The notes below the pieces were generated by a model. It was not told the DNA's origin, made no database searches, and worked only from the letters and a program-made list of their open reading frames with translations. A DNA stretch of 63,930 nucleotides, filler included, from Welwitschia mirabilis (lineage: Eukaryota), in NCBI GenBank assembly GCA_051453625.1. It is 8 parts of one record of this genome, joined end to end, with 100 filler letters (N's around TTAATTAATTAA, not from the genome) between each part and the next. Parts side by side here need not be neighbours in the genome. Positions count along the whole stretch, not along the records: positions 1 to 24,207 come from JBOZIK010000001.1; 7 more parts are not named here. One strand, 5' to 3'. Of this stretch, positions 5,430-63,930 are shown piece by piece (position 1 is the first letter of the stretch; the number at the start of each line of letters is the position of its first letter). The position numbers and the translations under genes were made by a program.

Positions 5430-7338
5430 TTTACTAATGTGAATATCCACTCTAGTTTTGGGATAAAAGAACATCAGTTGCCCATATACCTACAATTCAT
5501 AACATCTTGGTATAAAGCAAAAGAATAAAGATAAATAAAAAAGATCAAGAAGAAGTGAAGAGAGAAATACAAGAGTTGGTAAATAAATAATTAATGTGAC
5601 AATCTCAATTTAATTATTCATATGCATGTTTTATAGTTTGCAGTCACTTTGAAACGAAAAGTAAAAAGCCTAGGACAATCCTTACCTACATTCCTCTAAA
5701 CAATGTTAAGGTTTATATTACATGGTCTCTTGCAAATAAGAAGTAAATAATTTAAAAATTAGTAGAAGAAAAAGATTTATCAAAGTTTGATTATAAATAA
5801 GGATATATCTGCATTGCTAACGAAGATGTTCATAAACTGCATTCTTAACTCCTCAACTACTTTATGAATGCTAGTTATGCCTTTTAGCTTGAAAAATGCT
5901 CCATTCCAATTTTAATGAAGAATGTATATAATCTTTAAATACTATGATCATTTTGGTGCTAATTATGCAAATGAATTTTTAATATTTTCTAATGATATTG
6001 AAAAGCATGTGCTGCATATCATTATTTGCTAATACTTGTAAAAAGCATGGCATTGGTTTATTAGTAGTTGAGAAAAAATTTCAAGTCTATCAAGAAGAAA
6101 TTGAATTTTTAAGTGCTAAACTAGTAAATGGAAATATAATCTACAACCCAAATCTTAGAAAAGATTTCAACATTTCTAGACTATCTAATTAATAAAGAGC
6201 ACTGTTAGTAATTTATAGGTTGCATCAATTCTGTACGTTACCATCTTCTAGATGTATTGAAAAGGACAACTACAATAATGAAAACTATGATAAGCAACCC
6301 TACAAATGGAGTTTAGAGGCTACAAAAGAGAGAAAGAAGCTAAGAAGCTAAAGGCAAAATTTACAAAACTCTTGTCTCTCGAACCAACATTATCAGAACA
6401 CATGTCCTATCCATAGATGCCAATGAGAAATATTGAGCCACTACTTTATTCAAAAAGAAAGATAAACATGATGGGATATGTTCATATGCCTTTGGTACAA
6501 TATGACCAAATGAAGAAAAATGTTGGTTAGTAGAAAAGGAAGTCCTTGCTATCATTAAAGCATGAGCCAAATATCATGAGATCTTAATGGTTTAATAATT
6601 TATTTTACATATAGATTCAATGAACATGATAACATTGTTGAAAAAAAGAATAACAAGTGATCCTAATCTTCAACCTTACATATTGTGCCAATATTATTAG
6701 TACAATATGTATTTCTAGTACACAAAATTCTTAGGAAGTATAGTTTCATACTAAGTTTACTAACAAGGGAGTTTGCACCTACAAGAGTTACAAAAATCAA
6801 GATGATCCTTAGTGAAGATCAACAAGAAAGATTAAATAGCCCTTAGAAGTTTCAGGATGTGAAATTTGCTCATAGCATTATATGTCTTCTGTAGAACCAA
6901 ACAAAGAAATACCAATAGGAACGCCAAAAATTTGAAGAAGAATATCAAGAGGGTTTAAAGATTTATGGAAAGAAGTTACCTAGTGAGTTTATTATTGAAA
7001 GGGAATAGTTTAAAAATAAGCCTTAGAAACCACTTTATGGTCTAATAATCAAGTTAACAGTGCATGGGGGCTTTAGCCTTTTTGGCATTGTGAGCAACTT
7101 TATTTTCTTTTGAAAGTAAATTGGGGCTTTGGCCTTTTTGGCATTGTGAGCAACCTTATTTTCTTTGGAAAGTATATCTAAAAGAAGATCATTGTTTTCA
7201 AATTAGAATCAACTATTGGCCTGTACTACCTGGAAATTATGGAAGCCATATGAAAATTGTGGATGTGAAGAATATTGTGAATACATTCCATACTATATTA
7301 TTGCCATCTTTGATAAGAGAGAAGACCTTGCATTGTAA
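5430..7338 (+). mobile_element. Endogenous caulimovirid (plant pararetrovirus) RT-RNase H region plus downstream coding extension, pseudogenised
   Basis: Frameshifted translation gives DQEEVKREIQELVNK, ACFIVCSHFETKSKKPRTILTYIPLNNV, LSKFDYKxGY, TAFLTPQ..VMPFSLKNAPFQF, CKKHGIGLLVVEKKFQVYQEEIEFL, IDANEKY, ICSYAFG..EKEVLAIIKA and LLTREFA. These match Caulimoviridae RT/RH1 motifs (AFxVxNHxExKRGKPRMVINYKPLN; ICRYASG; LADFLTRE), and no integrase follows. Confidence 0.85.
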
Positions 7339-7340
7339 TT
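7325..7340 (+). repeat. Left target-site duplication of the LINE (ACCTTGCATTGTAATT)
   Basis: 14/16 identical to 14362-14377; both differences are transitions. Abuts the poly(T). Confidence 0.8.
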
Positions 7341-7569
7341 TTTTTTGAAAGAAACAGGATTATATTAAATTAGCAAATTTACATGAGGGAGCAAAAAGGC
7401 CATAACTTGATGGAAAGTAAACCATTTGACAAAAAGAAGATTATTCTACTATAGATGTAGAGATGGACTATAAACAGGGCAAAATTGGGAGTGAAAGTAC
7501 CCTTGGGAATTAGAAGAACTAGTAAAAACTGGAAACTGAACTAGGAAGAAAACCTGAAAGAACTATAGA

Positions 7570-7845
7570 TTAATATCCCTTATAGTGTGGGAAGAGGTTA
7601 CCATGATAATGCTCAAGCAAGAATCGTCCCAGTTCACCTGATAACACCTCGAATGCCTGATTAACGTCCTTGAATTCTGTAGCTCCTACTTTATTCTTTT
7701 CTGGGTGCAGTCTAAGTGCTTTCTTCCGATAGCTAGATTTAATTGCCCACGGTTGAGATCTATGAAAGATCCCTAAGGTCACGAAAGGGCATCTTTTTAA
7801 ACCGTGTATTGTGGCAAGCATAGCCTCTTTTTTTGCAATGTCCAT
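7570..7845 (-). pseudogene. DnaJ/Hsp40 J-domain at the C-terminus of the LINE ORF2 extension
   Basis: CPFVTLGI..SQPWAIKSSYRKKALRLHPEKNKVGATEFKDVNQAFEVLSGELGR follows the J-domain pattern (Y.VLG...IKKAYRKLAL..HPDKN...FK.IN.AYEVLSD..KR), with HPD changed to HPE. No introns. The stop at 7570-7572 is followed by ~220 nt of 3' UTR and poly(A). Confidence 0.85.
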
Positions 7846-8229
7846 GTCTATGTCTTCATGAGTATCATGCTGTCTCTTTTCCGATGAAGAATCCGTGGTG
7901 GAATTCGCCTCCTGGTTGCGACTGGGGCTACTTTCAATTTGAAAGGCCTCTTGAGGATGACCTTGAGGTTGTTCCTTTTGCTCCTAGGGTTTAGTTGGGG
8001 AATTTTCCTAAGATGTCTCTTCTTGCACTAGGGGGCGAATTCACCTTTTCTGTCTAAGATTCTGGGGGCAGAGTCATCACTCTCTGAGAGCGTGAGCTTC
8101 CTGGCTCAACATCCCCCTCAGGATGAAGGGCTTCGTCAGTTATAGATTTCCTTTTTGATTTCCTCTTAGGAAGGGTCTCCTAAGGGTGTTACAAAGGATG
8201 ATGATGAGGAGGGGCCTCTCAAGCTCTAA

Positions 8230-8770
8230 GCTCCTTTGCTGCCCTCCAAAAAGTCATTATTAATCCTAAATGTCATGCTGAGTCTTTGCAGTGTGGTACC
8301 TGGATAAAGAAGTAAGGAAGATTAATCTGTTGTCCTAGGTCCAGAGCTTTGAGAAAAGCAAAGTGCAAGCCTGATAATTTTGAGCAGCAACTAGACTAGA
8401 TGAAAGAACGGTCTATCATTTCGGCTCCTAATCCCCAACGGGGCGGTAACAACTTGTAGTTGATGTGCCCACTAGGCAGTTTTGGGAAACCGCTAGGAAA
8501 AAAAGGGGGTTACTTCCCATTGTCCTTTACTCCTAAGAGGAATTCTTTCACCTATTACTAGGACGTACAAGAGGTGAGAAAGAGAGACTTCTGTGATTTT
8601 GATGAAGATTCTCCTGAAAGTAGTTCTCTTCCCTCTTCATCTTCTGTAGAACAGGGCGATATCGGTCCTTGGTTCTCCTTGGCGCTTATGCAGAAGGGCT
8701 CCTCATCCCAATGCCTACACCTTCTCCCAGAGCTCAAGGCACTCCTTGAACAAACTAGGGTCTGATAGTT
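8230..8770 (-). pseudogene. Domain resembling the plant LTR-retrotransposon extra ORF (Transposase_32/Athila-ORF-like), in frame with LINE ORF2
   Basis: Continues in frame from the zf-RVT WxIxHKxNDMIF motif: WEKVxALGxGALLHK..IALFYRR..IFIKITEVSLSHLL..GE ... LLPPRW..LHFAFLKALDLGQQINLPYFFI..HLGLI. One frameshift in a homopolymer near 8498-8504. Confidence 0.55.
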
Positions 8771-11700
8771 CTATAATAGGAGTTACTCCCATGGCTACTT
8801 TGATTTGTAAGTGATACCGTTTAATTCTCTTTGCTATATTTATTGGAAATGGGAGGTGGGCACTATTGAAAATCATATCATTTCATTTATGCTATATCTA
8901 CCAAAAAGTTAAATGAATCCCATCTTTCTTACATGTTCTATATACATTACAATGCTTGTAATAATTCATCATAATTATCATTAAATCAAAGCTCCACTTG
9001 CATTGATGAAAGAGGTAATTGGTATTTTAATAATAAGGCTGACATATTGTACATGTGGGGTTGACTTGAAAGCCCCTCTTAAGTAACTAATCTCTTGTAA
9101 GGACTCTATCATGTTCCTTCAACTAGTAAAAATCTTAATTTTATTTTGTACTTAATCCTTCTAAAACTTCTAACTAATATGATCTTTCCCATATTTTTTA
9201 ATGATGATCTGCTTGGCCGAATATTCATTACAAATGATCAAATATATCAAGTTTCTTCTAGATTTATAAATATGTTTTCTTAGGTAAGATACCCCCTCTC
9301 TAATGTTCTAATTAGAATACTTGTAATTTATCAAATCACTCCACTACTGCCATCCATTAAAAAGCCTCTCGAGGATTCAATGTGCTCCTATGAGAAGACA
9401 GTCTCTTAGGCTCTAGATACCCTAGNNNNNNNNNNNNNNNNNNNNNNNNNNNNNNNNNNNNNNNNNNNNNNNNNNNNNNNNNNNNNNNNNNNNNNNNNNN
9501 NNNNNNNNNNNNNNNNNNNNNNNNNNNNNNNNNNNNNNNNNNNNNNNNNNNNNNNNNNNNNNNNNNNNNNNNNNNNNNNNNNNNNNNNNNNNNNNNNNNN
9601 NNNNNNNNNNNNNNNNNNNNNNNNNNNNNNNNNNNNNNNNNNNNNNNNNNNNNNNNNNNNNNNNNNNNNNNNNNNNNNNNNNNNNNNNNNNNNNNNNNNN
9701 NNNNNNNNNNNNNNNNNNNNNNNNNNNNNNNNNNNNNNNNNNNNNNNNNNNNNNNNNNNNNNNNNNNNNNNNNNNNNNNNNNNNNNNNNNNNNNNNNNNN
9801 NNNNNNNNNNNNNNNNNNNNNNNNNNNNNNNNNNNNNNNNNNNNNNNNNNNNNNNNNNNNNNNNNNNNNNNNNNNNNNNNNNNNNNNNNNNNNNNNNNNN
9901 NNNNNNNNNNNNNNNNNNNNNNNNNNNNNNNNNNNNNNNNNNNNNNNNNNNNNNNNNNNNNNNNNNNNNNNNNNNNNNNNNNNNNNNNNNNNNNNNNNNN
10001 NNNNNNNNNNNNNNNNNNNNNNNNNNNNNNNNNNNNNNNNNNNNNNNNNNNNNNNNNNNNNNNNNNNACAAGACTGGCAGATCGGACATGCGGAGTCAAC
10101 TTGAAAGCCCCTCTTGAGCAGTTAGTCTCTTGTGAGGATTTTGTTGTATTCCTTCAGCCAGCAAAATATCTTAATTTTTTCCAGTATTTAATCCTTTCAA
10201 AACTTCTTACTAGCGTCACCTTTCCATATTTTTTGATGAGGGTCTGCATCGCCGTGTCTTCATTGTAGATGTTCAAATCTATCAAGTTTTTTCTGGCTTT
10301 GCTGAGATGTTTTCTTAGGTAAGATTCCCCTTCTCCAATGTTCCAATTAGGATACTTGGAGTTTATTAGATCACTCTACAGCTACCTCCCCTCGGAAAGC
10401 CTTTTGAGGACTTGATGTACTCTTGTGGGAAGACAATCTTTTGGCCTTTGGATACCCGAAACTCTGGATTCCTTTAGATGAGCTATAATCTCCCATTTGC
10501 AAAGATGGATGTGGTTTTGGTCTTTATCTTCCAATCAAATAAACTCCTTTAGAAATTTGTTGATTTTTTGGATAATGTTCTTAAGGGGCGCGATAACGAA
10601 AGCGATGTATCTGAAAGAAGAAATTAGGCATGAGTTTGCTATAATGATCTTTGCTTTGGAAGAAAGGAAGTTATTCCACCAGGAATTGCATCATCTCTGG
10701 ATAGATTCTAGAATGTAGTTCCAAGTGAAGGTCTTGTGCTAATTCCATAGGGGGGATTCCGAGGTAGATGTCCTAAAGGTATCCCATTTTGGTGTTTAAT
10801 ATTCCTGTGATTTCTCTCCCTCTGATGATACTTCTATCGATGGTATGAATTTTAGATTTATTCTAATTGATCCGAAGGCTTGTGGCTTCTGCAAAACGAT
10901 TCATGGAGTTCTTAATGACTCTTGCTTGTTGACATGATTCTTTGATCAGATAATTGTATCATCTACATAATGGTTATTAATGAAAGTTTGACCTTCTATC
11001 TTGATGCTAGTTACTTCATTGCTTTTGAGAAATCCCTGTAAGACATGACAAATAGAAAAAGATATGAGAATAAAGGGTCCTCTTGTCTTAATCCTTGACC
11101 TACCAAAAAAGACTTGGATCTATGGCTGTTAACTTCTACTTTAAATTCTGCTGAAGCTTGCATGTCTAACCATAGATTGATGATGTCTTGGTTAAATCCA
11201 ATTTTCATAAGAATACAATCTAAAGCTTGCGAACTAACAAAATGCTATATTTAATTTAACAATAAAAAGGGGAAATTTATGCTTTTTAATAAAATGAATG
11301 ATTTTGTGGGTCATAAGAATTTGGTCCTAAATGTACTTAGAAGCGGAGGAGGAGGGGCAATATGGTCCACCATTATTTTCGCAAAGATCCTATAAAGAAA
11401 GTTGCAAATACCTAACAGTCTAAAGTCATCCGATTTGTTAGCATCCCATTTTTGGGGATGAGTATGTCCCTAGTTTTGTTCATTTCCCTAGGGATGTGTT
11501 TGTTATGTAGAATATCCTACATGATATTATGAAGGTTATTCTCTAATATAGAGAAGTAAGACTTAAAAAAGTTTGACTAGCCAACCGTCTGATCTTGGAG
11601 CTCTATTATTCTTCATTGACCTCACCGCTGACTGAATTTCTTCTCTGCTTAGGGGTTTAGTAAGATGGGCATTTTCTTCATTGGAGATTCTTTTATCTTC

Positions 11701-14361
11701 TAAAATAAGACTAGGGGCGATATCATCCCACTCCCACATTCTCTTAAGGTGAGTCTTCATTTCCTTATTTATTTCCTCTTCGTTTTCAACTAGCTGGTCT
11801 TTAATGATTAGCCTCCTGATCCTGTTATCTACTCTGTGTTGATTGGCTTGCTAGAAGAAAAACTTGATGTGTTTGTGCCCCTCCTTTAGCCACTTAATCC
11901 TTGATCTTTCCCTCTAGTAATTTTCCTTATCTGCATTTATCTCCTGGAGTTCCATGAGACATTGATATTCCTTGTTACGGAGGCTGTCTTGGTCTCTTCC
12001 CTCTTTTTGCTTAGTTTGAATTCTCTGTATCTCTTCCTCTAGGTCCCTTTTTAATTCAAATCTTTCTTTATCCTTCCCCCTCCAATCCTTTAAATGAGCT
12101 TAAAAGTGTTTAAGCCCCTATATTGAAAGGTGAGCAGATAAGTGCTGTTATATTAACTCCATAATTTTTCAATTAGCATTCTGGTTTCTCTCCTTGTTAT
12201 TCGGTAGCATTCCATTCGAAAAGGGGTCCTAAGGGGCATTAACGCCCCTATTCTATATTTGATTGGATGGTGATCCGAGGCTATTCTGTTCATTCCACAA
12301 GCTTCGGTTGGAAGCTTTGCTATATCTTTTCCAACGAGAATTCTGTTGATCCTGGACATAATTTGATTGCTTTCTGTCCTTTTATTCAACCAAGTGTATT
12401 TACACCTTGTAAGTGGGATATCTGAAAGGGCGTTCTGTACCATGAAGTCTTTAAGGATTACAACCCCTCTGCTGTTCTAATTTTCGCCCCCTGTTTTCTC
12501 CCAATGGTGTAGACATTAATTAAAGTCCTCTACTATTAGCCACTTAGACTTGTCTATCAGTATCTGCTGTAAATTCTTTAATGTGGAGGCTTATCTAGGT
12601 TGTTTTGAGGGCTAGAAATGTTTGGTATAGTCCATCTTTCTTCCTTTAGAAAGATGGTTAGGTGGTTCTTACTGCTGTTGACTNNNNNNNNNNNNNNNNN
12701 NNNNNNNNNNNNNNNNNNNNNNNNNNNNNNNNNNNNNNNNNNNNNNNNNNNNNNNNNNNNNNNNNNNNNNNNNNNNNNNNNNNNNNNNNNNNNNNNNNNN
12801 NNNNNNNNNNNNNNNNNNNNNNNNNNNNNNNNNNNNNNNNNNNNNNNNNNNNNNNNNNNNNNNNNNNNNNNNNNNNNNNNNNNNNNNNNNNNNNNNNNNN
12901 NNNNNNNNNNNNNNNNNNNNNNNNNNNNNNNNNNNNNNNNNNNNNNNNNNNNNNNNNNNNNNNNNNNNNNNNNNNNNNNNNNNNNNNNNNNNNNNNNNNN
13001 NNNNNNNNNNNNNNNNNNNNNNNNNNNNNNNNNNNNNNNNNNNNNNNNNNNNNNNNNNNNNNNNNNNNNNNNNNNNNNNNNNNNNNNNNNNNNNNNNNNN
13101 NNNNNNNNNNNNNNNNNNNNNNNNNNNNNNNNNNNNNNNNNNNNNNNNNNNNNNNNNNNNNNNNNNNNNNNNNNNNNNNNNNNNNNNNNNNNNNNNNNNN
13201 NNNNNNNNNNNNNNNNNNNNNNNNNNNNNNNNNNNNNNNNNNNNNNNNNNNNNNNNNNNNNNNNNNNNNNNNNNNNNNNNNNNNNNNNNNNNNNNNNNNN
13301 NNNNNNNNNNNNNNNNNNNNNNNNNNNNNNNNNNNNNNNNNNNNNNNNNNNNNNNNNNNNNNNNNNNNNNNNNNNNNNNNNNNNNNNNNNNNNNNNNNNN
13401 NNNNNNNNNNNNNNNNNNNNNNNNNNNNNNNNNNNNNNNNNNNNNNNNNNTAAAGTGTCTTCGATGGTAGCTTGGGAGTTGTTGGCCACATTTTCTGTAG
13501 TTCCCTTTCTCGAAGGATTTTATTGTTGGGTCTTCCTCTCATCTGAACTTTAAGTCATTTAACTCATCTATGTTTATTGGATTTTGTGGTTGTGAGTGTC
13601 TTTGGACTCTTCTTTATAAGGGCATGGAAGGAGTTGTATTCCCTCTCTTGTTCCTTCTTCTCCTTGTTTTCCTTAGGGAAGACGGTATTATTCTTTACCG
13701 TTTTCTCCTTCTTCTGTTTTTACCGATAATTGCTTTGATTATGCCCAGTCTTTCCATTGAAAGAACATGTTTCTTTTTATTTTTCTTCAATGTTAATAAG
13801 TCCTTTTCTGCATTATTCCCTTACGTGGTCCACTCTCCCATAATGGGAACATCTTTTTTCCGTAGTCATGTTTCTTGACTTCACACACATCTTACATGGA
13901 ATCGGGACGTTCTCGTAGGTAATTTCAAGGTCATATGTGCCCCATTTAGATATCAACTTAACATATTGTGTCTCCTTTGTATCTTTTAAGCTCATCCAGA
14001 TGCGAAATCTTACAAGGACCAACCTCGTTTACTTAATGGTTATTTGATCTAGCTTTATTAGTTTACCGAATTGAGATGCGATTTTCTTCAAGAGATCTTC
14101 GTCCCAAAGCTCTAAGAGGAACTTATGTATGCAAATCCGTATTGGCAGTTTTCTTAACAGGTTCGGGTCCACTTGTGCCCTCGAGGTCCATTTGGCTAGA
14201 GCTACCCCCCTCACTCCAAAAAGCCAAGGTCCTTTCGCAATGACTTTATTCCGATCTTATTCATTATCTAACTGAAAAAGCACTAATCCTTTCTGCATGG
14301 CTATGGCTTCAGCTTTATTAACCCGTGTCTATTTTGTTGCTACCCATTCCCTGATAAAATA

Positions 14362-14377: not shown

Positions 14378-14784
14378 ACTGGTTAAGTTATGTGAAAATT
14401 ATTACGACGATACCTAAAATACAATATTATTTATGTGCTACAGGCTGCTACCGATATGATAAACATTGTATTTCATACTATGTCTCTGCCACCGGTTGTT
14501 CTTATTATTGGCTTTTTGTAGCCGTGGATTACCGCGAACTTAAAATTAACGATCAGACAATTTTAATGCCAGCAGTGGCTTGATGGACACGTTTCCTCGG
14601 AAAAGAAAACACAACAAACCCCTCTGACTATAATAAGAAATAGCATGTATGAAAATGCGACGTCTGACCACCCGACGGCCAGAAATTAGATTCTCTGGAC
14701 AAAGGCCATCTCTTCCACCTCGGCTGCGTTCTTGATCCCGGATTTCCGGTTGAAGAACAATTTAGACGTTTGCTGTAGCACTCA

Positions 14785-15033
14785 ATGGAGGAAGACGCCA
14801 CGAATGGACAGATTGAGATTTCAGTTGTTTGGAGAGGGAAGACAATCGTTCTCAAGGAAAACGAAGGAACGAAAATTGCAGAACTAGGCGTGAAATTGAA
14901 AGAATTAACTGGAGTTTCACAGGACACCTTGCGCCTCCTTGTTCCTCAAACCAAAAATGCAGCTCCCACGTCATTAACTCCGTTCTCCGATGCGCATGCT
15001 GCGCTCACGCTAGCGGAGGCAGGGATATCAGAG
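14785..15033 (+). CDS. WSS1B: Exon 1 of ubiquitin-like and WLM domain metalloprotease (UBL domain)
   Basis: MEEDATNGQIEISVVWRGK..LGVKLKELTGVSQDTLRLLVP..PFSDAH..L.EAGISE matches, from memory, the At5g35690-type N-terminus. Phase-0 donor GAG|GTTCGT. GC-richer, CpG-retaining sequence. Confidence 0.88.
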
Positions 15034-15957
15034 GTTCGTTACGCGCTATCATGGGAAGGTTATATGTTAATTTTCAATAACACAAATTTCCATGCTTGAT
15101 GACCCTGTTTGATATCTGGTAACCCTCCTTTCCGAAATAATTCGGATTCTGTAAGATTTTGAAACTGCGAATCTGATGTGGCACGCTACTTTACAGTTAT
15201 GCTAACAGGAAGTTACACTTGGTCAATCTACTCGTCGTTTGTCTTACTGACTACCATCTCTCTTGGGACAACCATAGCTAACGTTTTTACAAGGTTACCT
15301 GACACGTTTCTTTTTTCAATTTGCTTAATAAGGATTTGCTGAACAGTCATGACTGCTTAGCAGAGTTTATGTAACCATACCATAAAGTTTTTGCCCCCTT
15401 TCCTGTTCGAAACTTTGGAAATAGCCATGGATTCTATTGGAGTTGGCCCTTCCATACATCATACATACAAATTGTATCCTCCTGTAACACTCCATCAAAT
15501 AGTAATAGTAATGGTTGGTATACCTTAGTGACGTTGGGTAATCTGTAAGAAGGTTAAAATTAAAGTACACAATAAAAAGAAGGAGAAATTATAAAAGGTA
15601 AATTTTAGTGATAACTTGTAATTGGTAAACAGTGCAGTTGGTTTGATTAATGTTGTTTGCTTTTGTTGGAACCTTATGGTCTTTGGATTGGTTTGTTGCT
15701 TTACCCATTTATTCAACTTGCATAAGCTGCAATCTTTAATAAGGCACATATCACATGTGAGCCTTAGACATCTGGTGGCTATTTCCAGGGTCAGCAAGGC
15801 CACCATAGGTTTTGGTCTGGGCAAGCAAACTAATGACATTAGCAAATATGGTATGGTTTCTTGCAAACCTTGTAAAAAAGGAAATATCTCTCAGCTGGGA
15901 AAACACTGATTCACATATGAATATAACTTTTAATAATGAACAATCATGATGACTTCC

Positions 15958-19399: not shown

Positions 19400-21030
19400 G
19401 ATTAACAATGAATCCATCACATTTTGGCTCCATTACTAGGGAAGCCAAGCAGCTCTTCTTTAGAGAGAAGAAGAGCCTTGCCCTAGGCTACAAACAAGGT
19501 CAGGTTTTTGGTGCTTTGAATGAATAAAGAAAGGGGATGGTCTACAAACATAGCAAAATATGGGGCACCACCAACAGAAATAGGATTTATCAATCCTATG
19601 ATATTAGAATGAATCAATTCTAAAACAAATGGCGTTTCATGCTAAAAGTTTCTTTTCAAATTCATTCCTTTACTTTGACCACCTACATTGTTAAAACAAA
19701 ATTAAGAGCAATGGAGGTTACCTTGGATTGTAAATTCTTTGACTGAAGAGCTTTTAGACTAGCTTCACTTAGATGTCCTAGTCTGTGATGCCATAAAGTT
19801 GCATTATCTTCTTGTGGCACTACAATGTTTCCAAACATGGGTAACATACATGGATCCCTCTTTCATGCAATGTAATGGCACTATTGCTCCCTTGGCAATC
19901 TTCCAATGGCTGCTTCCAAATGTGACAGTAAAACCAACTTCATCTAATTAACTATCAAATATGAGATTCTGTGTTGGTATTTGCCCATTTACACAACTCA
20001 TGTTCACACATTGAGTGCCTTCGATAAACAACACCATTGGAGACTATCATATAGGACATGAACACTTCTTTGTGTCGATAGACATGATAGGAAGTGGCTG
20101 AATCTAAAACACAAACATGATGAGAGGTACACTAGGAGATTACAACTTCTCCCGAGTGATTTATAAGAGTTATCCCACCCTCTTCATCAACCCTGCATCC
20201 TTCTTTTTGGTCCCTTCGTTCTTCTTTTTCAACTTGTAGCAATTTCTCTTCAAGTGGCCTTGCTTGGTGCGATAAAAACAAATAGCAGCTTGTGTGCTTG
20301 ATTTTACCTCTATTCTTACTCTACCATGAGGTTCTTTAGGTTTAGATTGACCCTTCTCAATAAACAAAGCTTCACGAAAGGTTGTTGTAGCAAACACCTT
20401 CTTACTGAACTCAACATCCAACAAAGTGGCAATAGTATTATCCCAAGTTGGCTTGGGATTTTTCGTGATAAATGTAGTGACTGTAGGTTGCCAACTTTGA
20501 GGCAATGAAGATAGCACTAGAAAGCATCTCAAAATTTCACAAAAATTCAATCATAAATTATCAAGATGCATGAACAGTCTGTGCATCTCATCCAGAAGAG
20601 AGTTCTGGGGAGCATAGTCCTTCAATGTGCAATTGAAAGCCTCATTTAAATTATAGAATGTCTTCCTACCAGACAGTTCATTGTGCTACTTCATTAGTTT
20701 CTCCCACAACCTGTTCACAGTCATCTCTAAAGCATATGCACTAAGTAGATTGTTATTGAGACAATGACAAATTAAGGACAAGGCGGGGTGGTGTGATGCT
20801 TCATCCTATATTACTGAAGGCTTCATCTTTGCCAATGTAGCATTGCACTTCTTCTATGTTAACAAATCCTTCATTAGAATCTTCCAAATCCGCAAATTCT
20901 TAGTAGCAGGCAGACGTGGGGTTGTTTGTAGTCTCTCCATTGTGCTTGCTATGAAGACACAAAATCCATTTGCTTGCTTGTTTGATGCAGTCTTTGCTTG
21001 TTTCATAAGAGGATCTAATGTTATACATAG
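19400..21030 (-). mobile_element. Ty1/copia gag-protease-integrase remnant in intron 1
   Basis: RIWKILMKDLL, LVLSSLPQSWQPTVTT (UBN2 gag), CFYRTKQGHLKRNC (zinc knuckle), VLDSATSYH (protease), LWHHRLGHLS, LELIHSNI. Confidence 0.85.
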
Positions 21031-24040: not shown

Positions 24041-24251
24041 AAAAGTTATCAATTTCTGTTTAGAAAAGGAGGAAGCCATCTATTTAAATTGCATGTAGAG
24101 TGGGCGCAAAAGGACAAGACAAGCAAAAAGGACAGAGACAACACAGAAGTCCCTCAGAGGAGGAGAAAATTGAAAGGGCCATTTCATGTTATTGTGCAGA
24201 AGAGAAANNNNNNNNNNNNNNNNNNNNNNNNNNNNNNNNNNNNNNNNNNNN

Positions 24252-24263
24252 TTAATTAATTAA
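24252..24263. other. Artificial scaffold spacer TTAATTAATTAA inside N runs (also 41251, 53683, 55959, 58340, 61148, 62645)
   Basis: Identical 12-mer with stops in all six frames, always flanked by ~44 Ns on each side. Confidence 0.9.
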
Positions 24264-24307
24264 NNNNNNNNNNNNNNNNNNNNNNNNNNNNNNNNNNNNN
24301 NNNNNNN

Positions 24308-40132: not shown

Positions 40133-43100
40133 TGATAGAATTGAGAACCCTAGGAGGAGGAGGAATGGGTGAATAGGTTCTTTAAAAAATAATTAATCAA
40201 AATCAACTAAACAAACTCATGATATATCAAATGCTCAAAGTAAAATTACTAATAAATTCATGCATTCAAAGCAAAGATAAAAGTATTTAATGTAATGAAA
40301 CTAACTAAAAGTATAAAATACTAAATAGTTGCATACAAGATTTTATAGTGATTTGTAAACCCCCTACTCCACTCTTAATGATCATCTTATCACCAAGCTT
40401 GATCTAAATCTTCGTTACTCCTCTAGGTACTGTAGGTTCATCTATAACCTTTACAAATGAACTTTTCTAGGCTTAGTCTTAACCTTNNNNNNNNNNNNNN
40501 NNNNNNNNNNNNNNNNNNNNNNNNNNNNNNNNNNNNNNNNNNNNNNNNNNNNNNNNNNNNNNNNNNNNNNNNNNNNNNNNNNNNNNNNNNNNNNNNNNNN
40601 NNNNNNNNNNNNNNNNNNNNNNNNNNNNNNNNNNNNNNNNNNNNNNNNNNNNNNNNNNNNNNNNNNNNNNNNNNNNNNNNNNNNNNNNNNNNNNNNNNNN
40701 NNNNNNNNNNNNNNNNNNNNNNNNNNNNNNNNNNNNNNNNNNNNNNNNNNNNNNNNNNNNNNNNNNNNNNNNNNNNNNNNNNNNNNNNNNNNNNNNNNNN
40801 NNNNNNNNNNNNNNNNNNNNNNNNNNNNNNNNNNNNNNNNNNNNNNNNNNNNNNNNNNNNNNNNNNNNNNNNNNNNNNNNNNNNNNNNNNNNNNNNNNNN
40901 TCTTAATGATCAGCTTATCACCAAGCTTGATCTAAATCTTCGTTACTTCTCTAGGTACTACAGGTTCATCTATAACCTTTACAAATGAACTTTTCTAGGC
41001 TTAGTCTTAACCTTTAAATAGACTTTTTCAGGCTTAGTCTCAATTTTTGAATAGAATTTTTTAGGCTTAGTCTCAACCTTTAAACAAACTTTTGCAGACT
41101 TAGTCTCAATCTTTGAATAGACTTTTGCAAGTTAAGTCTCAATCTTTCACAATGTAAGACAATGATGGAATAATGCCAAGATGCACAGATATCACTCACT
41201 TTTTAGNNNNNNNNNNNNNNNNNNNNNNNNNNNNNNNNNNNNNNNNNNNNTTAATTAATTAANNNNNNNNNNNNNNNNNNNNNNNNNNNNNNNNNNNNNN
41301 NNNNNNAAAACTCTAATAAGATTCCTCCTTTTCTTCTTTTTTCTCTTTAGAATCATCTTTAGAATCTTCTTATTCTTTATATCCTTCTATGCATGCTGAG
41401 CTAGTGGCCTTTACTAAAGCATCAGTAATGTTGTACCCAGCTACTATGAGTGCTTCCTTCATATGTTTGGTATAGGAATCAATCCGTCTTAAGTACAAAA
41501 GAGTTTCATCAGGAAAGGCTTCCTTTGGAGAGGGTGACTTTGAGGACTTATTGTAAGGGACAAATATGTGTATACAAGATAGTATTGCNNNNNNNNNNNN
41601 NNNNNNNNNNNNNNNNNNNNNNNNNNNNNNNNNNNNNNNNNNNNNNNNNNNNNNNNNNNNNNNNNNNNNNNNNNNNNNNNNNNNNNNNNNNNNNNNNNNN
41701 NNNNNNNNNNNNNNNNNNNNNNNNNNNNNNNNNNNNNNNNNNNNNNNNNNNNNNNNNNNNNNNNNNNNNNNNNNNNNNNNNNNNNNNNNNNNNNNNNNNN
41801 NNNNNNNNNNNNNNNNNNNNNNNNNNNNNNNNNNNNNNNNNNNNNNNNNNNNNNNNNNNNNNNNNNNNNNNNNNNNNNNNNNNNNNNNNNNNNNNNNNNN
41901 NNNNNNNNNNNNNNNNNNNNNNNNNNNNNNNNNNNNNNNNNNNNNNNNNNNNNNNNNNNNNNNNNNNNNNNNNNNNNNNNNNNNNNNNNNNNNNNNNNNN
42001 NNNNNNNNNNNNNNNNNNNNNNNNNNNNNNNNNNNNNNNNNNNNNNNNNNNNNNNNNNNNNNNNNNNNNNNNNNNNNNNNNNNNNNNNNNNNNNNNNNNN
42101 NNNNNNNNNNNNNNNNNNNNNNNNNNNNNNNNNNNNNNNNNNNNNNNNNNNNNNNNNNNNNNNNNNNNNNNNNNNNNNNNNNNNNNNNNNNNNNNNNNNN
42201 NNNNNNNNNNNNNNNNNNNNNNNNNNNNNNNNNNNNNNNNNNNNNNNNNNNNNNNNNNNNNNNNNNNNNNNNNNNNNNNNNNNNNNNNNNNNNNNNNNNN
42301 NNNNNNNNNNNNNNNNNNNNNNNNNNNNNNNNNNNNNNNNNNNNNNNNNNNNNNNNNNNNNNNNNNNNNNNNNNNNNNNNNNNNNNNNNNNNNNNNNAAT
42401 AGTACTTTGGTGTAAGTAAGGAAGTGGAAATGATGTGTTTTGAAGTGTAAGTCTTACCACAGATCTCCCTTGTCACTATAGGATTATCTTTTATGGTATT
42501 GTGAAGAGGTTAAAACTTTTCATAGTCACCTTTAGGAATATCAGTTAGATTAGAGATGAGATTTGCTATAAGCTTTAGTCACTTTCCCAAAATAAGCGTT
42601 CCAAAGTTCTTGAATCATGATCATAAGTTGTATTACAATAAAACATATGAGTGAGAAAAGGATAGGCAGAATCAGAAACATCTAGGAAATAATAAATACC
42701 CTAATTTCTTAGGGCATGAATCACTTCCCTGAGCTCTCTAAGCTCTGAGGTTGCCATATATTATTCTTGACAATAGGATCTCTTGCTGAAGTTTTCTTAA
42801 CTCTCTTCCTTAAAGATCTTTTAGTCATTTCTACCTTTTTCAAGATCTTGAAAGTAAGAAAAATGAGAGAAAATTACTAAATCTAAGAGAAAAGCTCTAG
42901 ATCTAAAAGAAAAAGAGGGCTAGAATATAATGAAAACAAATCAGGAGCCTCTTTTTTTTTTTATAGAGATAGTGAAATAGGGTGATTTAAAGAGTGAAAT
43001 TAGGTTCATCAATGGTACTTCTACACTATAATCTATCAGGCTCAGTTAANNNNNNNNNNNNNNNNNNNNNNNNNNNNNNNNNNNNNNNNNNNNNNNNNNN

Positions 43101-52716: not shown

Positions 52717-54182
52717 AGTAATTACTAATAATGGGCTATTATGCTACTTATTGAGCCTGTATGCAGTATCCATGCTTGAGGAAAGAAACTATTCCTAAAC
52801 CAGATGCGGTTTCACACGGAGTAGAACCATTAGTGAGTTCTAGAGCATAGCACTTACAATCATGAGGGAAGGATTGAGGTGCATGAGTTGAGTAGAAAAT
52901 TAGCTAGCTAGCATGAGGATTAAGTGTTATTAGAGGTCCAATTCATTTCAGTATTTGGGATGCCATTGTTGAGTCCTCAACATTGCTTTATTCATGCCAT
53001 TCTTCCCTCCAAACCCCATGACCTATTGATTGAGTTACAACGCTTAAAGATCTCAGGAGAAATGTTCTGTCTAGGACTATTGGTTAGGATGCTATGGTTG
53101 AAGTTTAAAAAAAAATAAAAATTAATGCATGTGCAAGTTTTTAAACCACCATCCTAGCATCAATACAATTCCGAGACACTTTTGATCTGTTGTAGGGAAT
53201 GTTTCTTAGATCATTAACCACCATTACTTGTGTTGATCTGAACGATATACAATTCATGCATAATGCAGTTGTGAAATGCCCCCTTTTCAGTTTGGCTCAC
53301 TTAATGCTCACCCACCATTACTCCTTTGGGCAAGCCATTATGCGTTCATCTATCATTAAGTGCCTTAATTAATTGACCATATTATTTGTACTGCCAGCCT
53401 TGCGAATGGTATTCTCTACCTTCATGACGCTCACAACCAATTCCCTCTTCTTCTGGATGCTGCAGACATATTCCTTCCTGCATTGCCTAGTCAACTGTGC
53501 ACTATTAGAAAAGGCATCTGAGACCGATTATAGGAGATCAGAACCTCATAACAAATTTTTTAAGAAAAGTAAAAATGTGGATGTGAAATTTCTATATATG
53601 GCTTTTATAACTAGATAAAAAGGTAAGTACTACATTATNNNNNNNNNNNNNNNNNNNNNNNNNNNNNNNNNNNNNNNNNNNNTTAATTAATTAANNNNNN
53701 NNNNNNNNNNNNNNNNNNNNNNNNNNNNNNNNNNNNNNTATTAACTGTTTAGATTTTTGTTTAGATGTTGACCTGTAGCAACACTTTATTTTTAGTTATT
53801 ATAGTATAGGTCTTCTTTTCGTAATTTCTATTTTTACATTCCAAAATAAATACTTTATCATCTTTTTCATTATCCAGATTATGTGCAGTGATGACAACTC
53901 TGTGCCTTGAGTTTTTCAATTTTTTACTTTTTTCAAAAAATTTAAGGTCTTTCTATCATCCTTTCTATATTCTAGATAACTCAGGAGGATAACATTCTTC
54001 TTTCTATGTTTTCTGTATCTGTTATTTTGCATTTCTATTTTCTATGTTTTTCATTTTTTATGTTTTTTATGGTTTCTATCATCCAAATAATCATCTANNN
54101 NNNNNNNNNNNNNNNNNNNNNNNNNNNNNNNNNNNNNNNNNNNNNNNNNNNNNNNNNNNNNNNNNNNNNNNNNNNNNNNNNN

Positions 54183-55900: not shown

Positions 55901-56034
55901 AAGATTTGAGCAAANNNNNNNNNNNNNNNNNNNNNNNNNNNNNNNNNNNNNNNNNNNNTTAATTAATTAANNNNNNNNNNNNNNNNNNNNNNNNNNNNNN
56001 NNNNNNNNNNNNNNTTTGATGTTCAACTTCTAAA

Positions 56035-58295: not shown

Positions 58296-58488
58296 NNNNN
58301 NNNNNNNNNNNNNNNNNNNNNNNNNNNNNNNNNNNNNNNTTAATTAATTAANNNNNNNNNNNNNNNNNNNNNNNNNNNNNNNNNNNNNNNNNNNNCGCAC
58401 CCCCCCCCCCCCCCCCAACCCAAAGGTTAACGATTCTACAGATTCCTTAATAGAAAGATGAAGAGAAAAAGTATAAGGGGCTCCTTTT

Positions 58489-59890
58489 TTAAGAAATATA
58501 AGAAAGATGATTAGTAATATAATTATGTTTACATTCTTTATTTATGATGATTAGGTTAAATTCTGGCATTAAGTGTATCCATCGTATAAGTCTAAAGCTT
58601 AAATCTTTCTTTGTCATGAGGTATCTAATGGTGACATGAGTGCAGACATTGGTATGAAATCCAAAAAGGTAATGACAAAGTTTATTAAAACAAAAAATAA
58701 TGGCTAGCATTTCTTTTTGATAGTAGTATAATTTGATTGGTGGTGAAAGGATTTTACTAATATAGAAAATTATTATATATCCTTTATCATGTTTTTGATT
58801 TAAAACTCCACCTACAGTAATATCTCTAGCATCAAATATAAGTTTGAATATTTGCTCCAATAAGGTTCAATGACAATAGGCTTAAAAGTTATCTTGTCCT
58901 TAAGATTTTTTAAAGTAGTTTAACAAGTGTTAATCCACCCAAATTTGGTATTTTTTTTAAGACGTGACTAAAGTGGTTTGTAAATGTTAGCATAATTTTT
59001 AATAAATATTTAATATAATCTAGCATGACCAAGAAAAGATATTACTTGTTTAACATTAGCTAGAGGATTAATATTTTTGATAATGTCAATTTTTGAAGGA
59101 TCCATCCTAATGCCTTGGCTAGAAATATGGTGTCTAAGCACAATCCCAATCCTTACATGAAAATGACTCTTTTCCCAACAAAGATGAAGGCCACTCTTTA
59201 TGCAATGGTCAAGAACTATATCTAATATTTTTAATATTTGTTCAAAGAAATCATCAAAGATAGAAAGTCATCCATGAACATCTCTATAAAGTTTTTAATC
59301 ATATTAGATAAAATACCTATCATGGCTCTTTAAAATGGTTTTAGGAGGAATAAAATAAAGGGCATTATTTTGAATGAAAAGATGTTAAAAAAATAGGTGA
59401 AAGTAGTTTTGACTTAATCCTCATTGGTAATGAAAACTTGGTTATATCCATCAAACCCATCAAGAAAATAATAATAAGCATGGCCTTGGATTATATCAAG
59501 AACTTGATCAAGAAAAGGTAAAGGGTAATGATTCTTTTTGGTGATCTCATTAAGTTTCTTAAAATCAATGGACATTTGCCATTTCCCCCTCTTTTTAGAT
59601 ACAACTACAAGAGGACTTATTCATTCACTATCAAAAATAGCATAAATGATCTTGGCATTCATAAGTTTAATGTTTTAATCTTTGACTACTTACTTAAGGG
59701 CTAGATTAAGCATTCATTAAGGTTTTTAATGTATTTTAATTTTTCTTCTAAGTAGGTCTTGTTTTAAATAATATGAGAGCTATGGAATTTAAACCTTTAT
59801 GATTTCAAGCCAAGGCTTTTATTTTAGAAGTCAAAAGTTTAATTAAGGCTTTATCTTTGAAAGGATAAATACAAGCATTTATGATCAAAG
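58489..59890 (-). mobile_element. Athila-like RT-RNase H
   Basis: IDFKKLNEITKKNHYPLPFLDQVL, FLDGFDGYNQV, FMDD, FLGHA, IFDARDITVGGVLNQ, KEMLAIIF, RLIRWIHLMPEFNL. Confidence 0.88.
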
Positions 59891-61000: not shown

Positions 61001-61268
61001 ATAGTATCATCCTACTGGTCGTCCAGATGCTCACAGCAGAAGATGAAGATTGATAATTAGATATTTGTTCACTTCTAGTTTAACTGCCTGTGAACCACAT
61101 ATGNNNNNNNNNNNNNNNNNNNNNNNNNNNNNNNNNNNNNNNNNNNNTTAATTAATTAANNNNNNNNNNNNNNNNNNNNNNNNNNNNNNNNNNNNNNNNN
61201 NNNATAGAAAACTATTACTAATGATAGGCGAGTTGTCTTTTAATCTAATGATGTCTATCATTAAGCAG

Positions 61269-61373: not shown

Positions 61374-63930
61374 GCAACTGAGTTAATTCTAATGATGTTA
61401 GCAATGTGAATGATATTGCATTTTTTGAGAATAATTCTAGCATTCAAAGGTTTTCATCACAAGTGGAGATGATTATTTGATTATGATGATTCTAATCTCA
61501 AGCATACTAATATGTATGTACATTAATTTTATATGTTAATTACAATTATAAGAGAGCAAACACTATGTGCCCTAAACTGCCTGCGTACTTGATATTGACA
61601 AAAACCCCAAATAAAAGATATGTGCACCTTAATTTGATTTCATTCATGACATACTAGGCTTTTCACTAACTTAAGCACACTCATTATAACAACTCAACTC
61701 ACAGCTTGATATGGTTTGCCATATCCTCCAACATTTCCAAGATCAACTTGGCCAATAAATGATATGGCTTCATACCTGAGTTACCAAACTAGTTGTAAAG
61801 GTGCTATCATTAATGTTTCCAAACCAAATTACATCCATGTATGTAGCTATGTGAAAATCATTATTTTGTGTATGTAAAACCAAGTTGTGTTATCCCAGAA
61901 TCATGAGGGAATTATAAGGATTGTTTCCTTACCAAGTTGTGTATGTTTAGTCACTTGCCTTTATTTGATCATTTCCTTATCAGTTCCTAGTCTCTCTCTC
62001 CTAGCAAACACTTTCTTAGGACTCTGTCCTCTCATAACATTCTTTACATGTGAAATTTCAAACCCTAAAAAAATTAACACAAGTTCAGTCAACTTTTAGG
62101 TTGTAAAATAATGCTGAAATTCAAACAATCAGAATTTGTATTTTTGTTATTCTTTCTTGGTTAAGNNNNNNNNNNNNNNNNNNNNNNNNNNNNNNNNNNN
62201 NNNNNNNNNNNNNNNNNNNNNNNNNNNNNNNNNNNNNNNNNNNNNNNNNNNNNNNNNNNNNNNNNCAAACAATCAGAATTTGTATTTTTGTTATTCTTTC
62301 TTGGTTGAGTTTAGTTTTGTTTACAATTTTAACTTAGTATGCAATGAGAGGACCTACGTGTGTTGTAGTTCTTCCTAAGCATGTGCTTTGTTTCATTGGT
62401 TTTTGGTTTTTATTCACCCAGGAAAATAGTTTTACTCTTTTATATCCTTCTGAAAGGATTTCTGTCTTAGCCAGGAATGAATGCTTACAAGCAATACCCA
62501 TCAAGAAGAGTGCTACTTTTTCTTCCTCTTCTTCTTTCCTTCCTTCTTTTCTTCTTTTCCTATTTTTTTTTTTTTTGGAAGTTGGTTGTTATTTGTCAGG
62601 NNNNNNNNNNNNNNNNNNNNNNNNNNNNNNNNNNNNNNNNNNNNTTAATTAATTAANNNNNNNNNNNNNNNNNNNNNNNNNNNNNNNNNNNNNNNNNNNN
62701 ACTAAATCATGTAACTTCAGGGGCTGGGCCATCTGAAGGGCTCCTACTGGTCATAGGAGTGGCTGTCAGTGTTTGGGTGGTTATCAGTCTAGCTATTGCA
62801 TAATACATATGACTTCAGGGGGTTATCCCACCTGAGGGGTTCCTATTGGTTATAGGAATGATCTAGTAGACAATGAATAATTAACACCCCTCTGACGAGG
62901 CATACTATTCATACTATTCATACTATTCATCAAACTTTTTCATGAGATCTGGATATTTTACCTCGAATGTTGTATTGATTTGAGACTTGATCATTTGATA
63001 TTTTTATAGATTCCTTCTTAAAACCCCATTATCTTAAGCCTTGCCATGAACCATACTAGGAACTGTGAAGGTATAGTTCTACACCATGCTTACATGTACA
63101 GGATCTAGCATAATGATGACCTTTAGATGGACGAGTTGCTGTTGTTTGGATGGAGTGTTATCTTTATACTTATTACATGTATTTATTTGAAAGACTTTAT
63201 ATGTCTAATAGAATTGTATTATTTTAATAAACATGATTTTTGTGCTCAAATTCGTGTTAAGGATGTGTTGTAATCATATGAATATATTTTCAATATATTA
63301 AAAAGGTTAAAAGCATTTTTTTTAAGTAAATCTTATATGTCTATATGATGTTTTATGGAAATTATGGTATCTTAATTTAAGCCATCATTTTTTTATTCAT
63401 GACTCATATAAATAAGACATATGGTATTGAAATTATAAGTTTATTTTATTATAGCAAAATACTTTTAAGTATTACCTTAATAAAATGGTGAAGTTATTTG
63501 ATGTATAGACAAGTTTAATAAAAGAATAAACTTATGCCATTTATTAAATTTGAAAAATGTAGTATAGCTTAATTCTAAATAAATGATATAAAGGAAAAAA
63601 GGGAGGTTATAAAATCATAATGGTGACCTTTCTGTACATTTATTCTTTTACCGTTACATCAAGATGGTACTTATTAAATAAGAGAAAAAGCTAATTCTCA
63701 TTTAAAATGTAACTGCCATCATATTAAAATGATTTTTAGTAATGCAAGATTGATTTCTTCCAAGATTTCATGTGTCCTTTTCCTCCCTTTCGCGTAGTCA
63801 AATTTCTTCCTAAACTCTATATTTCTCTCAGTCGCTTTTATTGCATTTTTGCTTACGTGCTTTCTATGTAAAATCTCAGATGCAGTTACCTTCTGTAATG
63901 TGATCTTGCTTGCACATTATCTTTCTCTTT

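Follow-up and report, generated by a model that had tools for sequence, protein, structure and literature searches.

A J-domain sequence in the 3′ tail of an L1-type LINE repeat of Welwitschia mirabilis

A stretch of DNA from Welwitschia mirabilis (assembly GCA_051453625.1) carries a J-domain (DnaJ) coding sequence in the tail of a long interspersed element (LINE), and this J-domain sequence is real, though imperfect. The stretch, called the window below, is 63,930 nt long, consists of 8 joined parts and has an overall GC content of 32%. All coordinates refer to the whole window, and the element under study lies with all its parts on the minus strand. The locus is best explained as the 3′ portion of a dead LINE belonging to an abundant L1-type plant family. 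For the history of the J-domain, we favour, with a probability of about one half, the reading that a fragment of a host J-protein was captured into the 3′ end of this family and carried along as cargo.

The J-domain frame and its relatives

The J-domain lies in a stop-free frame of 137 codons (7573-7983), closed by a stop codon at 7570-7572. This is the longest stop-free frame of the window, the runner-up having 127 codons, and among 2000 dinucleotide shuffles of the region 7570-8830, only 35 contained 137 or more open codons. The J-domain core, with helices I-III and the HPE loop, is found at 7633-7779 (frame residues 69-117), where the Pfam family PF00226 (DnaJ) matches with an E-value of 1.1e-10 and 41.9 bits, against a cut-off of 27.8 bits, over profile positions 5-56 of 63. 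In a phmmer search of PDB sequences with the frame, 28 different sequences of solved J-domains reached E<=0.001, 2och_A ranking first (2.6e-09). The AlphaFold (AF2) model of the 137-codon frame is confident for residues ~49-130, with predicted local distance difference test (pLDDT) values of 87-97 for residues 51-120, and has helices at 49-61, 66-70, 78-91, 98-115 and 117-130, the last four making up the J-domain fold with its hairpin of helices II and III; it was built on an alignment of 46 relatives, all of them J-proteins, and is therefore not independent of the sequence match. When this model was submitted to Foldseek, the top matches were all J-domains (best 2och, target template modelling score 0.90, root mean square deviation 1.2 Å over 64 columns), with modest E-values, the best being 1.6e-3 and none <=0.001. 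Based on the Pfam match, the solved relatives and the predicted fold, the J-domain announced by a sequence-only reading of this DNA is present.

The same reading had recorded that the loop of the domain is HPE and not His-Pro-Asp (HPD), and this is what we find (CAC CCA GAA, 7699-7707): the loop between helices II and III has Glu at a position where Asp is at least 90% conserved across the 46 aligned relatives. In the alignment of relatives, nearly all the conserved J-domain positions are retained in the window copy. The linker rich in S/P/E/Q which had been described ahead of the domain corresponds to the first ~48 residues of the frame, where the low confidence of the model is consistent with disorder. 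On its other side, the frame terminates 20 codons past the J-domain. An in-frame ATG at 7843-7845 (minus strand) is Met47 of the frame, two codons ahead of the first confident helix, and a product begun there would be a compact J-protein of 91 residues.

Relatives of the frame were searched with phmmer among 1.84 billion cluster representatives, a library that possibly leaves the plant's own proteome outside. It yielded 117 matches with E<=0.001, of which not one reached 1e-10. The top-ranking relative has an E-value of 4.2e-08 and 38% identity, and none is above 50%, over the J-domain only. A near-identical host DnaJ, which the sequence-only reading had named as the mark of a one-off event, did not turn up among these representatives, the best relatives being 38-50% identical. 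The longest relative has 762 residues, which means that no LINE-sized protein is among the matches, and the only relatives of the frame are cellular J-proteins. Sixteen matches align from before query residue 40, and 8 of the 10 tested are proteins combining DnaJ with DUF1977, which we take to be of the DNAJB12/B14 type. These are the best matches reaching into the linker (query residues ~10-130), and they have a similar 'KNK..GA.E.FK' pattern. They differ in that identity is only 30-38%, that their J-domains score 72-95 bits versus 41.9 bits here, and that their N-terminal helical part and DUF1977 were not found in the window. A tblastn search of the window with the 117 J-proteins gave nothing at E<0.05 outside 7549-8007. 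Because the N-terminal part and DUF1977 are missing from the window, a processed pseudogene of a DnaJ+DUF1977 gene is disfavoured. Judging by its sequence relatives, the segment is a fragment of the coding sequence of a cellular J-protein, and it does not copy any of the proteins among the representatives searched.

A repeated unit with a common 3′ end

Public contigs were aligned to 6900-9425 at a likeness of at least 80%, and their depth was summed per bin. The contigs came from three DNA runs, each of a different study and together bearing two organism labels: X1 (3624 aligned contigs), X5 (2584) and X7 (1508). Across the flank (6900-7324), the depth amounts to 8-11 in X1, 0-6 in X5 and 0-3 in X7; over the element (7325-9425), it is 96-1358, 99-1929 and 45-487, respectively, values of summed contig depth which are not copy numbers. 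In all three runs, depth thus steps by one to two orders of magnitude at the edge of the element. In X1, it passes from ~8 in bin 7240-7324 to ~500 in bin 7325-7409, with a sharp edge at 7339. The J-domain bins (7580-7834) have depths of 525-777 in X1, 496-734 in X5 and 224-336 in X7, similar to the ORF2 tail (ORF2 being the second open reading frame of the LINE), and similar to, no higher than, the 3′ tail (404-675 in X1). Depth is lowest over the spacer region 7920-8259 (128-247 in X1), which is also the least conserved part of the element; at 9117-9425, it is 96-583 in X1. By identity, the X1 contigs are distributed as 72 at >=99%, 191 at 95-99%, 878 at 90-95% and 2483 below 90%.

Contigs that are ~80% identical to the window copy bridge the successive parts of the element. 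From the tail through the J-domain into the spacer, they cover 7431-7834, 7426-7702, 7595-8075, 7550-8034, 7816-8187 and 7834-8188; in a stretch resembling RNase H, 8095-8400 and 8209-8643; in the ORF2 tail and zinc finger, 8528-8937, 8632-8930, 8710-8980 and 8772-9037. Joints were also seen from 8034 to 8303 (3 contigs, two runs) and from 8063 to 8307 (2 contigs). With high depth over 7339-9425 in three DNA runs and bridging contigs, the J-domain is not limited to one copy, in agreement with the family-wide presence that had been supposed, and a one-off transduction is rejected.

The unit ends with a UTR-like (untranslated region-like), AT-rich 3′ tail of 223 nt (7347-7569; 32% GC, no CpG), which holds five stops in 73 codons when read in the J frame, and with A8 at 7339-7346 (T8 on the plus strand), which is what is left of the poly(A) closing the repeated unit. 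The succession of stop codon, short 3′ UTR and poly(A) given by the sequence-only reading was therefore recovered. In X5, 20 contigs continue beyond 7339 with T-rich sequences that have little in common (agreement 0.47), and since these continuations differ past a common end, they point to many insertions ending in poly(A). We conclude that the unit, running from the zinc finger to the A-run, exists in many copies which share a single 3′ end, and that the J-domain segment very probably belongs to the 3′ end of the LINE family.

No further copy of the 7339-9425 unit was found elsewhere in the 63.9-kb window. Metagenome contigs, in collections that may lack this plant, gave 0 matches to the exact J-domain 24-mer, a result of little weight, and 81 pattern matches in a related-loci search, none of them confirmed. 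Homologous-protein searches, in a collection for which the same caveat holds, gave 3 candidates with the J frame at near lengths, none scored, and 27 with a 95-aa reverse transcriptase (RT) piece of a second LINE at longer lengths, none scored either.

On the 5′ side, further ORF2 of the same copy (9117-9425) is ended by an N gap (9426-10067, 642 N). The RT and the endonuclease (EN) of the J-bearing copy fall in or beyond this gap, and its 5′ end is outside the assembled sequence. The ORF2 segment 9035-9422 is found again on the other side of the gap, at 10070-10457, in the same orientation and 75.8% identical over 389 nt. Because the same segment is repeated at only 75.8% identity, the LINE beyond the gap is a second copy; the two copies either stand in tandem orientation or were brought together when two contigs were scaffolded. 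The second copy, a decayed L1-type LINE (10068-14298, minus strand), has a DUF4283 ORF1 at 13451-14298 (E 8e-20) and a zf-RVT of 28.7 bits (E 2e-6, above the cut-off). It is interrupted by a 767-N gap (12684-13450), and the part past its zinc finger falls in the neighbouring gap. Beside its 5′ end, a 106-codon open frame on the plus strand (14779-15096) has no Pfam match and, by eye, a gene-like appearance with a ubiquitin-like start.

The pair of target-site duplications within which the whole element had been placed was not found: the copy enters the N gap, the LINE past the gap is a different copy, and only chance-level 8-9-mers match the 3′ flank, with no repeat longer than 9 non-T letters. 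A 9-mer common to 7327-7335 and 8997-9005 was considered as the target-site duplication of an inner insertion, and rejected as the ORF2 frame and diverged contigs cross 8997. In the single-copy flank, ~175 nt beyond the A-run, a 56-nt unit is present in two tandem copies (7054-7165, 88% identical).

Cargo or working protein

A reading frame continuing from the ORF2 zinc finger, with scattered stops and two frameshifts, had been described upstream of the J-domain. The zinc finger itself (zf-RVT, PF13966) is there, at 8991-9116, in a decayed form: the match is weak (E 1e-4, 23.3 bits) and under the cut-off of 27.5 bits. It is followed by the ORF2 C-terminal tail and spacer (8525-8990), in which the zf-RVT frame holds to ~8811 and, by eye, resembles an ORF2 tail, by an RNase-H-like stretch (8103-8524), lying in frame 1 and then in frame 2, and by a spacer (7984-8102), broken in all frames, which leads to the J frame. 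Every frame is interrupted across 7984-8990 in the window copy, so that the continuing frame is not visible as such. From the zinc finger towards the J frame, the best frames hold 6 stops per 105, 3 per 95, 3 per 88 and 6 per 64 codons, and the last 29 codons before the J frame, read in that frame, hold 3. These densities are close to the value of 0.057 per codon that base composition predicts; in the spacer, the neighbouring frame has 2 stops in 65 codons. The globular domain reported after the zinc finger had no Pfam or PDB match. The RNase-H-like stretch is called by eye only, as the outline of a decayed RNase H, and search support was not obtained: no Pfam match at E<=10 was found in any frame, sub-pieces included, nor any PDB match with phmmer, and a protein atlas search with a 40-aa stop-free piece returned nothing usable. 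By eye, this part finishes ~20 codons short of a double stop near 8073, which would be the natural end expected for an ORF2 of the RNase-H type.

The reading that we favour starts from a single capture downstream of the ORF2 end, by which the J-domain and ~65 codons of preceding linker would have been acquired, either through 3′ transduction (read-through) or through RT template switching onto a host J-protein mRNA. As L1-type elements need just a poly(A) end, the altered tail would have been tolerated and copied along with the family. The J-domain would be a hitch-hiker, maybe translated for a while and not required for spread, and it would now be decaying, as suggested by the HPE loop, the weak match to Pfam and the apparent stop carried by most other copies. 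This stop concerns codon 79 of the J frame, TGG in the window copy. At 7747/7748, T is found in 79-100% of the aligned depth per site, in all three runs, and if the third letter matches that of the window copy, the codon appears to be a stop in most of the aligned copies. If real, the shared stop means that most copies descend from masters in which the J frame was already broken.

Several observations weigh against cargo. Statements on variable sites rest on the 40 listed of 1032 variable sites, and the third base of codon 79 in other copies is deduced from its absence among these 40. The state of the HPE codon in other copies, for which no majority difference from the window copy is among the same sites, is a soft inference of the same kind. 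At 7637 (codon 116), the majority reads Asp, the canonical 'LSD' position, where the window copy has Gly, and the family J-domain is for this reason better than that of the window copy. The LINE coding parts of the window copy are far less well preserved than its J frame, which has zero stops, versus ~4-6 predicted from those parts (0.03-0.06 per codon), and an observed/expected CpG ratio of 0.53-0.60, ~2x the 0.27-0.34 of the adjoining parts. The J module is retained in copies down to ~80% identity, under both organism labels, which is long for useless cargo. Finally, the bridging described above is tiling, where no one contig covers all parts and no other copy is read end to end.

These points about the J frame can also be taken as support for a working protein. 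Under this explanation, a translated J-domain recruited Hsp70 to the protein or ribonucleoprotein (RNP) of the element, either as the C-terminal end of ORF2p after RNase H or as a separate small protein from Met47, and the stops are post-insertion decay; we hold it to be possible, and on balance rather unlikely. It would account for an intact frame of a length seldom reached in shuffles and free of the expected stops, for the conserved J positions and the confidently predicted fold, for the majority Asp at codon 116, for the CpG content and for the presence of the module in diverged copies. At 8030/8031, one base is absent in ~1/5 of the depth, a loss that would join an open upstream frame to the J frame. 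The stops at 8275, in the RNase-H-like part, and at 9172, in the LINE part, are private to the window copy; at 8275, the majority of copies have a sense codon. LINE ORF2 is known to tolerate new domains at its C-terminus (PMC4686597), and HPE is found in ~1% of J-domains in a survey of ~280,000 J-proteins (PMC10410713).

Other results count against a working protein. The window copy has no continuous frame, and ~4/5 of the depth has its length at 8030/8031. The apparent stop at codon 79 in most aligned copies indicates spread after the frame broke. The HPD motif is lacking, whereas the activity of the plant J-protein SILENZIO, for example, needs it (PMC10651127). The depth of the J-domain is not above that of the 3′ tail, and working relatives reach about twice its Pfam score. 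As for the spacer, besides its low depth and the double stop seen by eye, three contigs of other copies bear 283-349 unaligned letters on this side. The stable in-frame fusion of EN, RT, zinc finger, intervening part and J-domain (EN-RT-zf-X-J) which the sequence-only reading had proposed for the recruitment of Hsp70 is not borne out, with counter-evidence in the broken frame of the window copy, the weak spacer, the apparent stop and an HPE codon not among the listed sites where the majority differs.

In a more specific form, active masters of the family would have made a J-domain protein, as EN-RT-zf-RNaseH-linker-J or as the 91 residues from Met47, and commandeered host Hsp70 with it; we advance this tentatively and consider it doubtful. 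Such a protein could serve in folding or remodelling the RT or RNP of the element itself. A bolder possibility is that of an HPE decoy, interfering with the J-domain/Hsp70-dependent silencing of methylated transposons by SILENZIO-MBD5/6. If true, either would make this the first non-LTR (long terminal repeat) retrotransposon known to encode its own co-chaperone.

We also considered that two unrelated repeats lie side by side, a J-bearing retroposon having landed in the A-rich end of an old LINE, which we judge improbable. LINE endonucleases prefer A/T-rich targets, and base composition changes sharply at ~8830: GC content is 42-49% and observed/expected CpG 0.27-0.60 in 7570-8830, while 7339-7569 and 8831-9425 have 31-32% GC (31% directly above the border) and almost no CpG. 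Depth dips at 7920-8259, and some contigs lose alignment at 8075, 8095, 8187/8188, 8209 and 8269. The candidate borders, the one at 8830 included, are nevertheless crossed by diverged copies, namely by the contigs 8528-8937, 8772-9037, 7816-8187 and 7595-8075 and by the 8034-8303 joints. Where contigs are clipped, at 8837 and 8856, their ends look like the window sequence displaced by a few letters, and so suggest small insertions or deletions, not boundaries, and the ORF2 frame continues past 8997. A host or exapted gene which the LINE would merely adjoin, to which the better preservation of the J frame and a GT after the Gly128 codon (by eye, a possible splice donor) might be ascribed, is very unlikely given that the stretch is high-copy, that no N-terminal or DUF1977 part was found in the window with the 117 J-proteins, and that none of the 6 reads aligned from the RNA run X18 is at least 95% alike.

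Known systems and other features of the window

LINEs seldom gain protein domains, the textbook cases being the RNase H of plants and the R1 helicase of insects. Plant L1 LINEs are described in which ORF2 bears an archaeal-type RNase H at its C-terminus (Smyshlyaev et al. 2013, as cited in PMC4686597). The present family shares with them the L1-type plant LINE background (DUF4283 ORF1 and zf-RVT in the second copy), extra sequence past the zinc finger, and a host-derived domain gained at the 3′ end and passed on through an entire family. It differs in that the added domain is a J-domain, lying beyond an RNase-H-like part unconfirmed by search, and that the window copy has no continuous frame. 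In insect R1 LINEs, a superfamily 1 (SF1) helicase is found at the C-terminus of ORF2 after a spacer of more than 300 aa (PMC4686597). A foreign domain at the extreme end and a long spacer without similarity to anything are common to both; the R1 domain is in a single open ORF2 with a complete domain set, whereas here the spacer is stop-ridden and the J-domain imperfect (HPE, 41.9 bits).

L1 3′ transductions and chimeric LINE-mRNA retrocopies also place host sequence downstream of the coding region, ended by poly(A) and mobile with the element. Such events usually concern one locus, while here a whole family has the segment as a fixed part, at ~10 to 200 times the depth of single-copy sequence. 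Even if the J-domain is no more than cargo, the family clearly illustrates how LINE tails are rebuilt, with a piece of host coding sequence fixed at its 3′ end; it also produces stray J-domain matches when genes are predicted in this plant.

Among viruses, polyomavirus T antigens bear J-domains, and viral reverse transcriptases and replication proteins rely on Hsp70. In plants, SILENZIO is a J-protein that silences methylated transposons, with an activity depending on HPD and Hsp70 (PMC8616336 and PMC10651127). What the viral J-domains and SILENZIO share with the present case is a selfish element, or the machinery silencing it, engaging host Hsp70 through a J-domain; they differ in having HPD and a tested function. 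A J-domain would tie a retrotransposon directly to the Hsp70 system, which plants also use in silencing methylated transposons (PMC10651127). In the full-text literature, with Repbase and Dfam outside the search, no LINE or retrotransposon with a DnaJ or J-domain was found. DnaJ mentions in PMC9940879 and PMC3753637 were set aside as unrelated, and the words 'reverse transcriptase', 'transpos' and 'RVT' do not occur in the main text of the J-protein survey (PMC10410713).

The window is largely made of transposon debris. An open frame of 125 codons on the minus strand (58492-58866) matches the RT_RNaseH of LTR retrotransposons (PF17917, E 7e-17), and a weak copia gag match lies at 20173-20550. 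A gap of constant make-up, two 44-N blocks around 12 called bases, recurs at 24208-24307, 41207-41306, 53639-53738, 55915-56014, 58296-58395, 61104-61203 and 62601-62700, and looks like an assembly or masking artefact.

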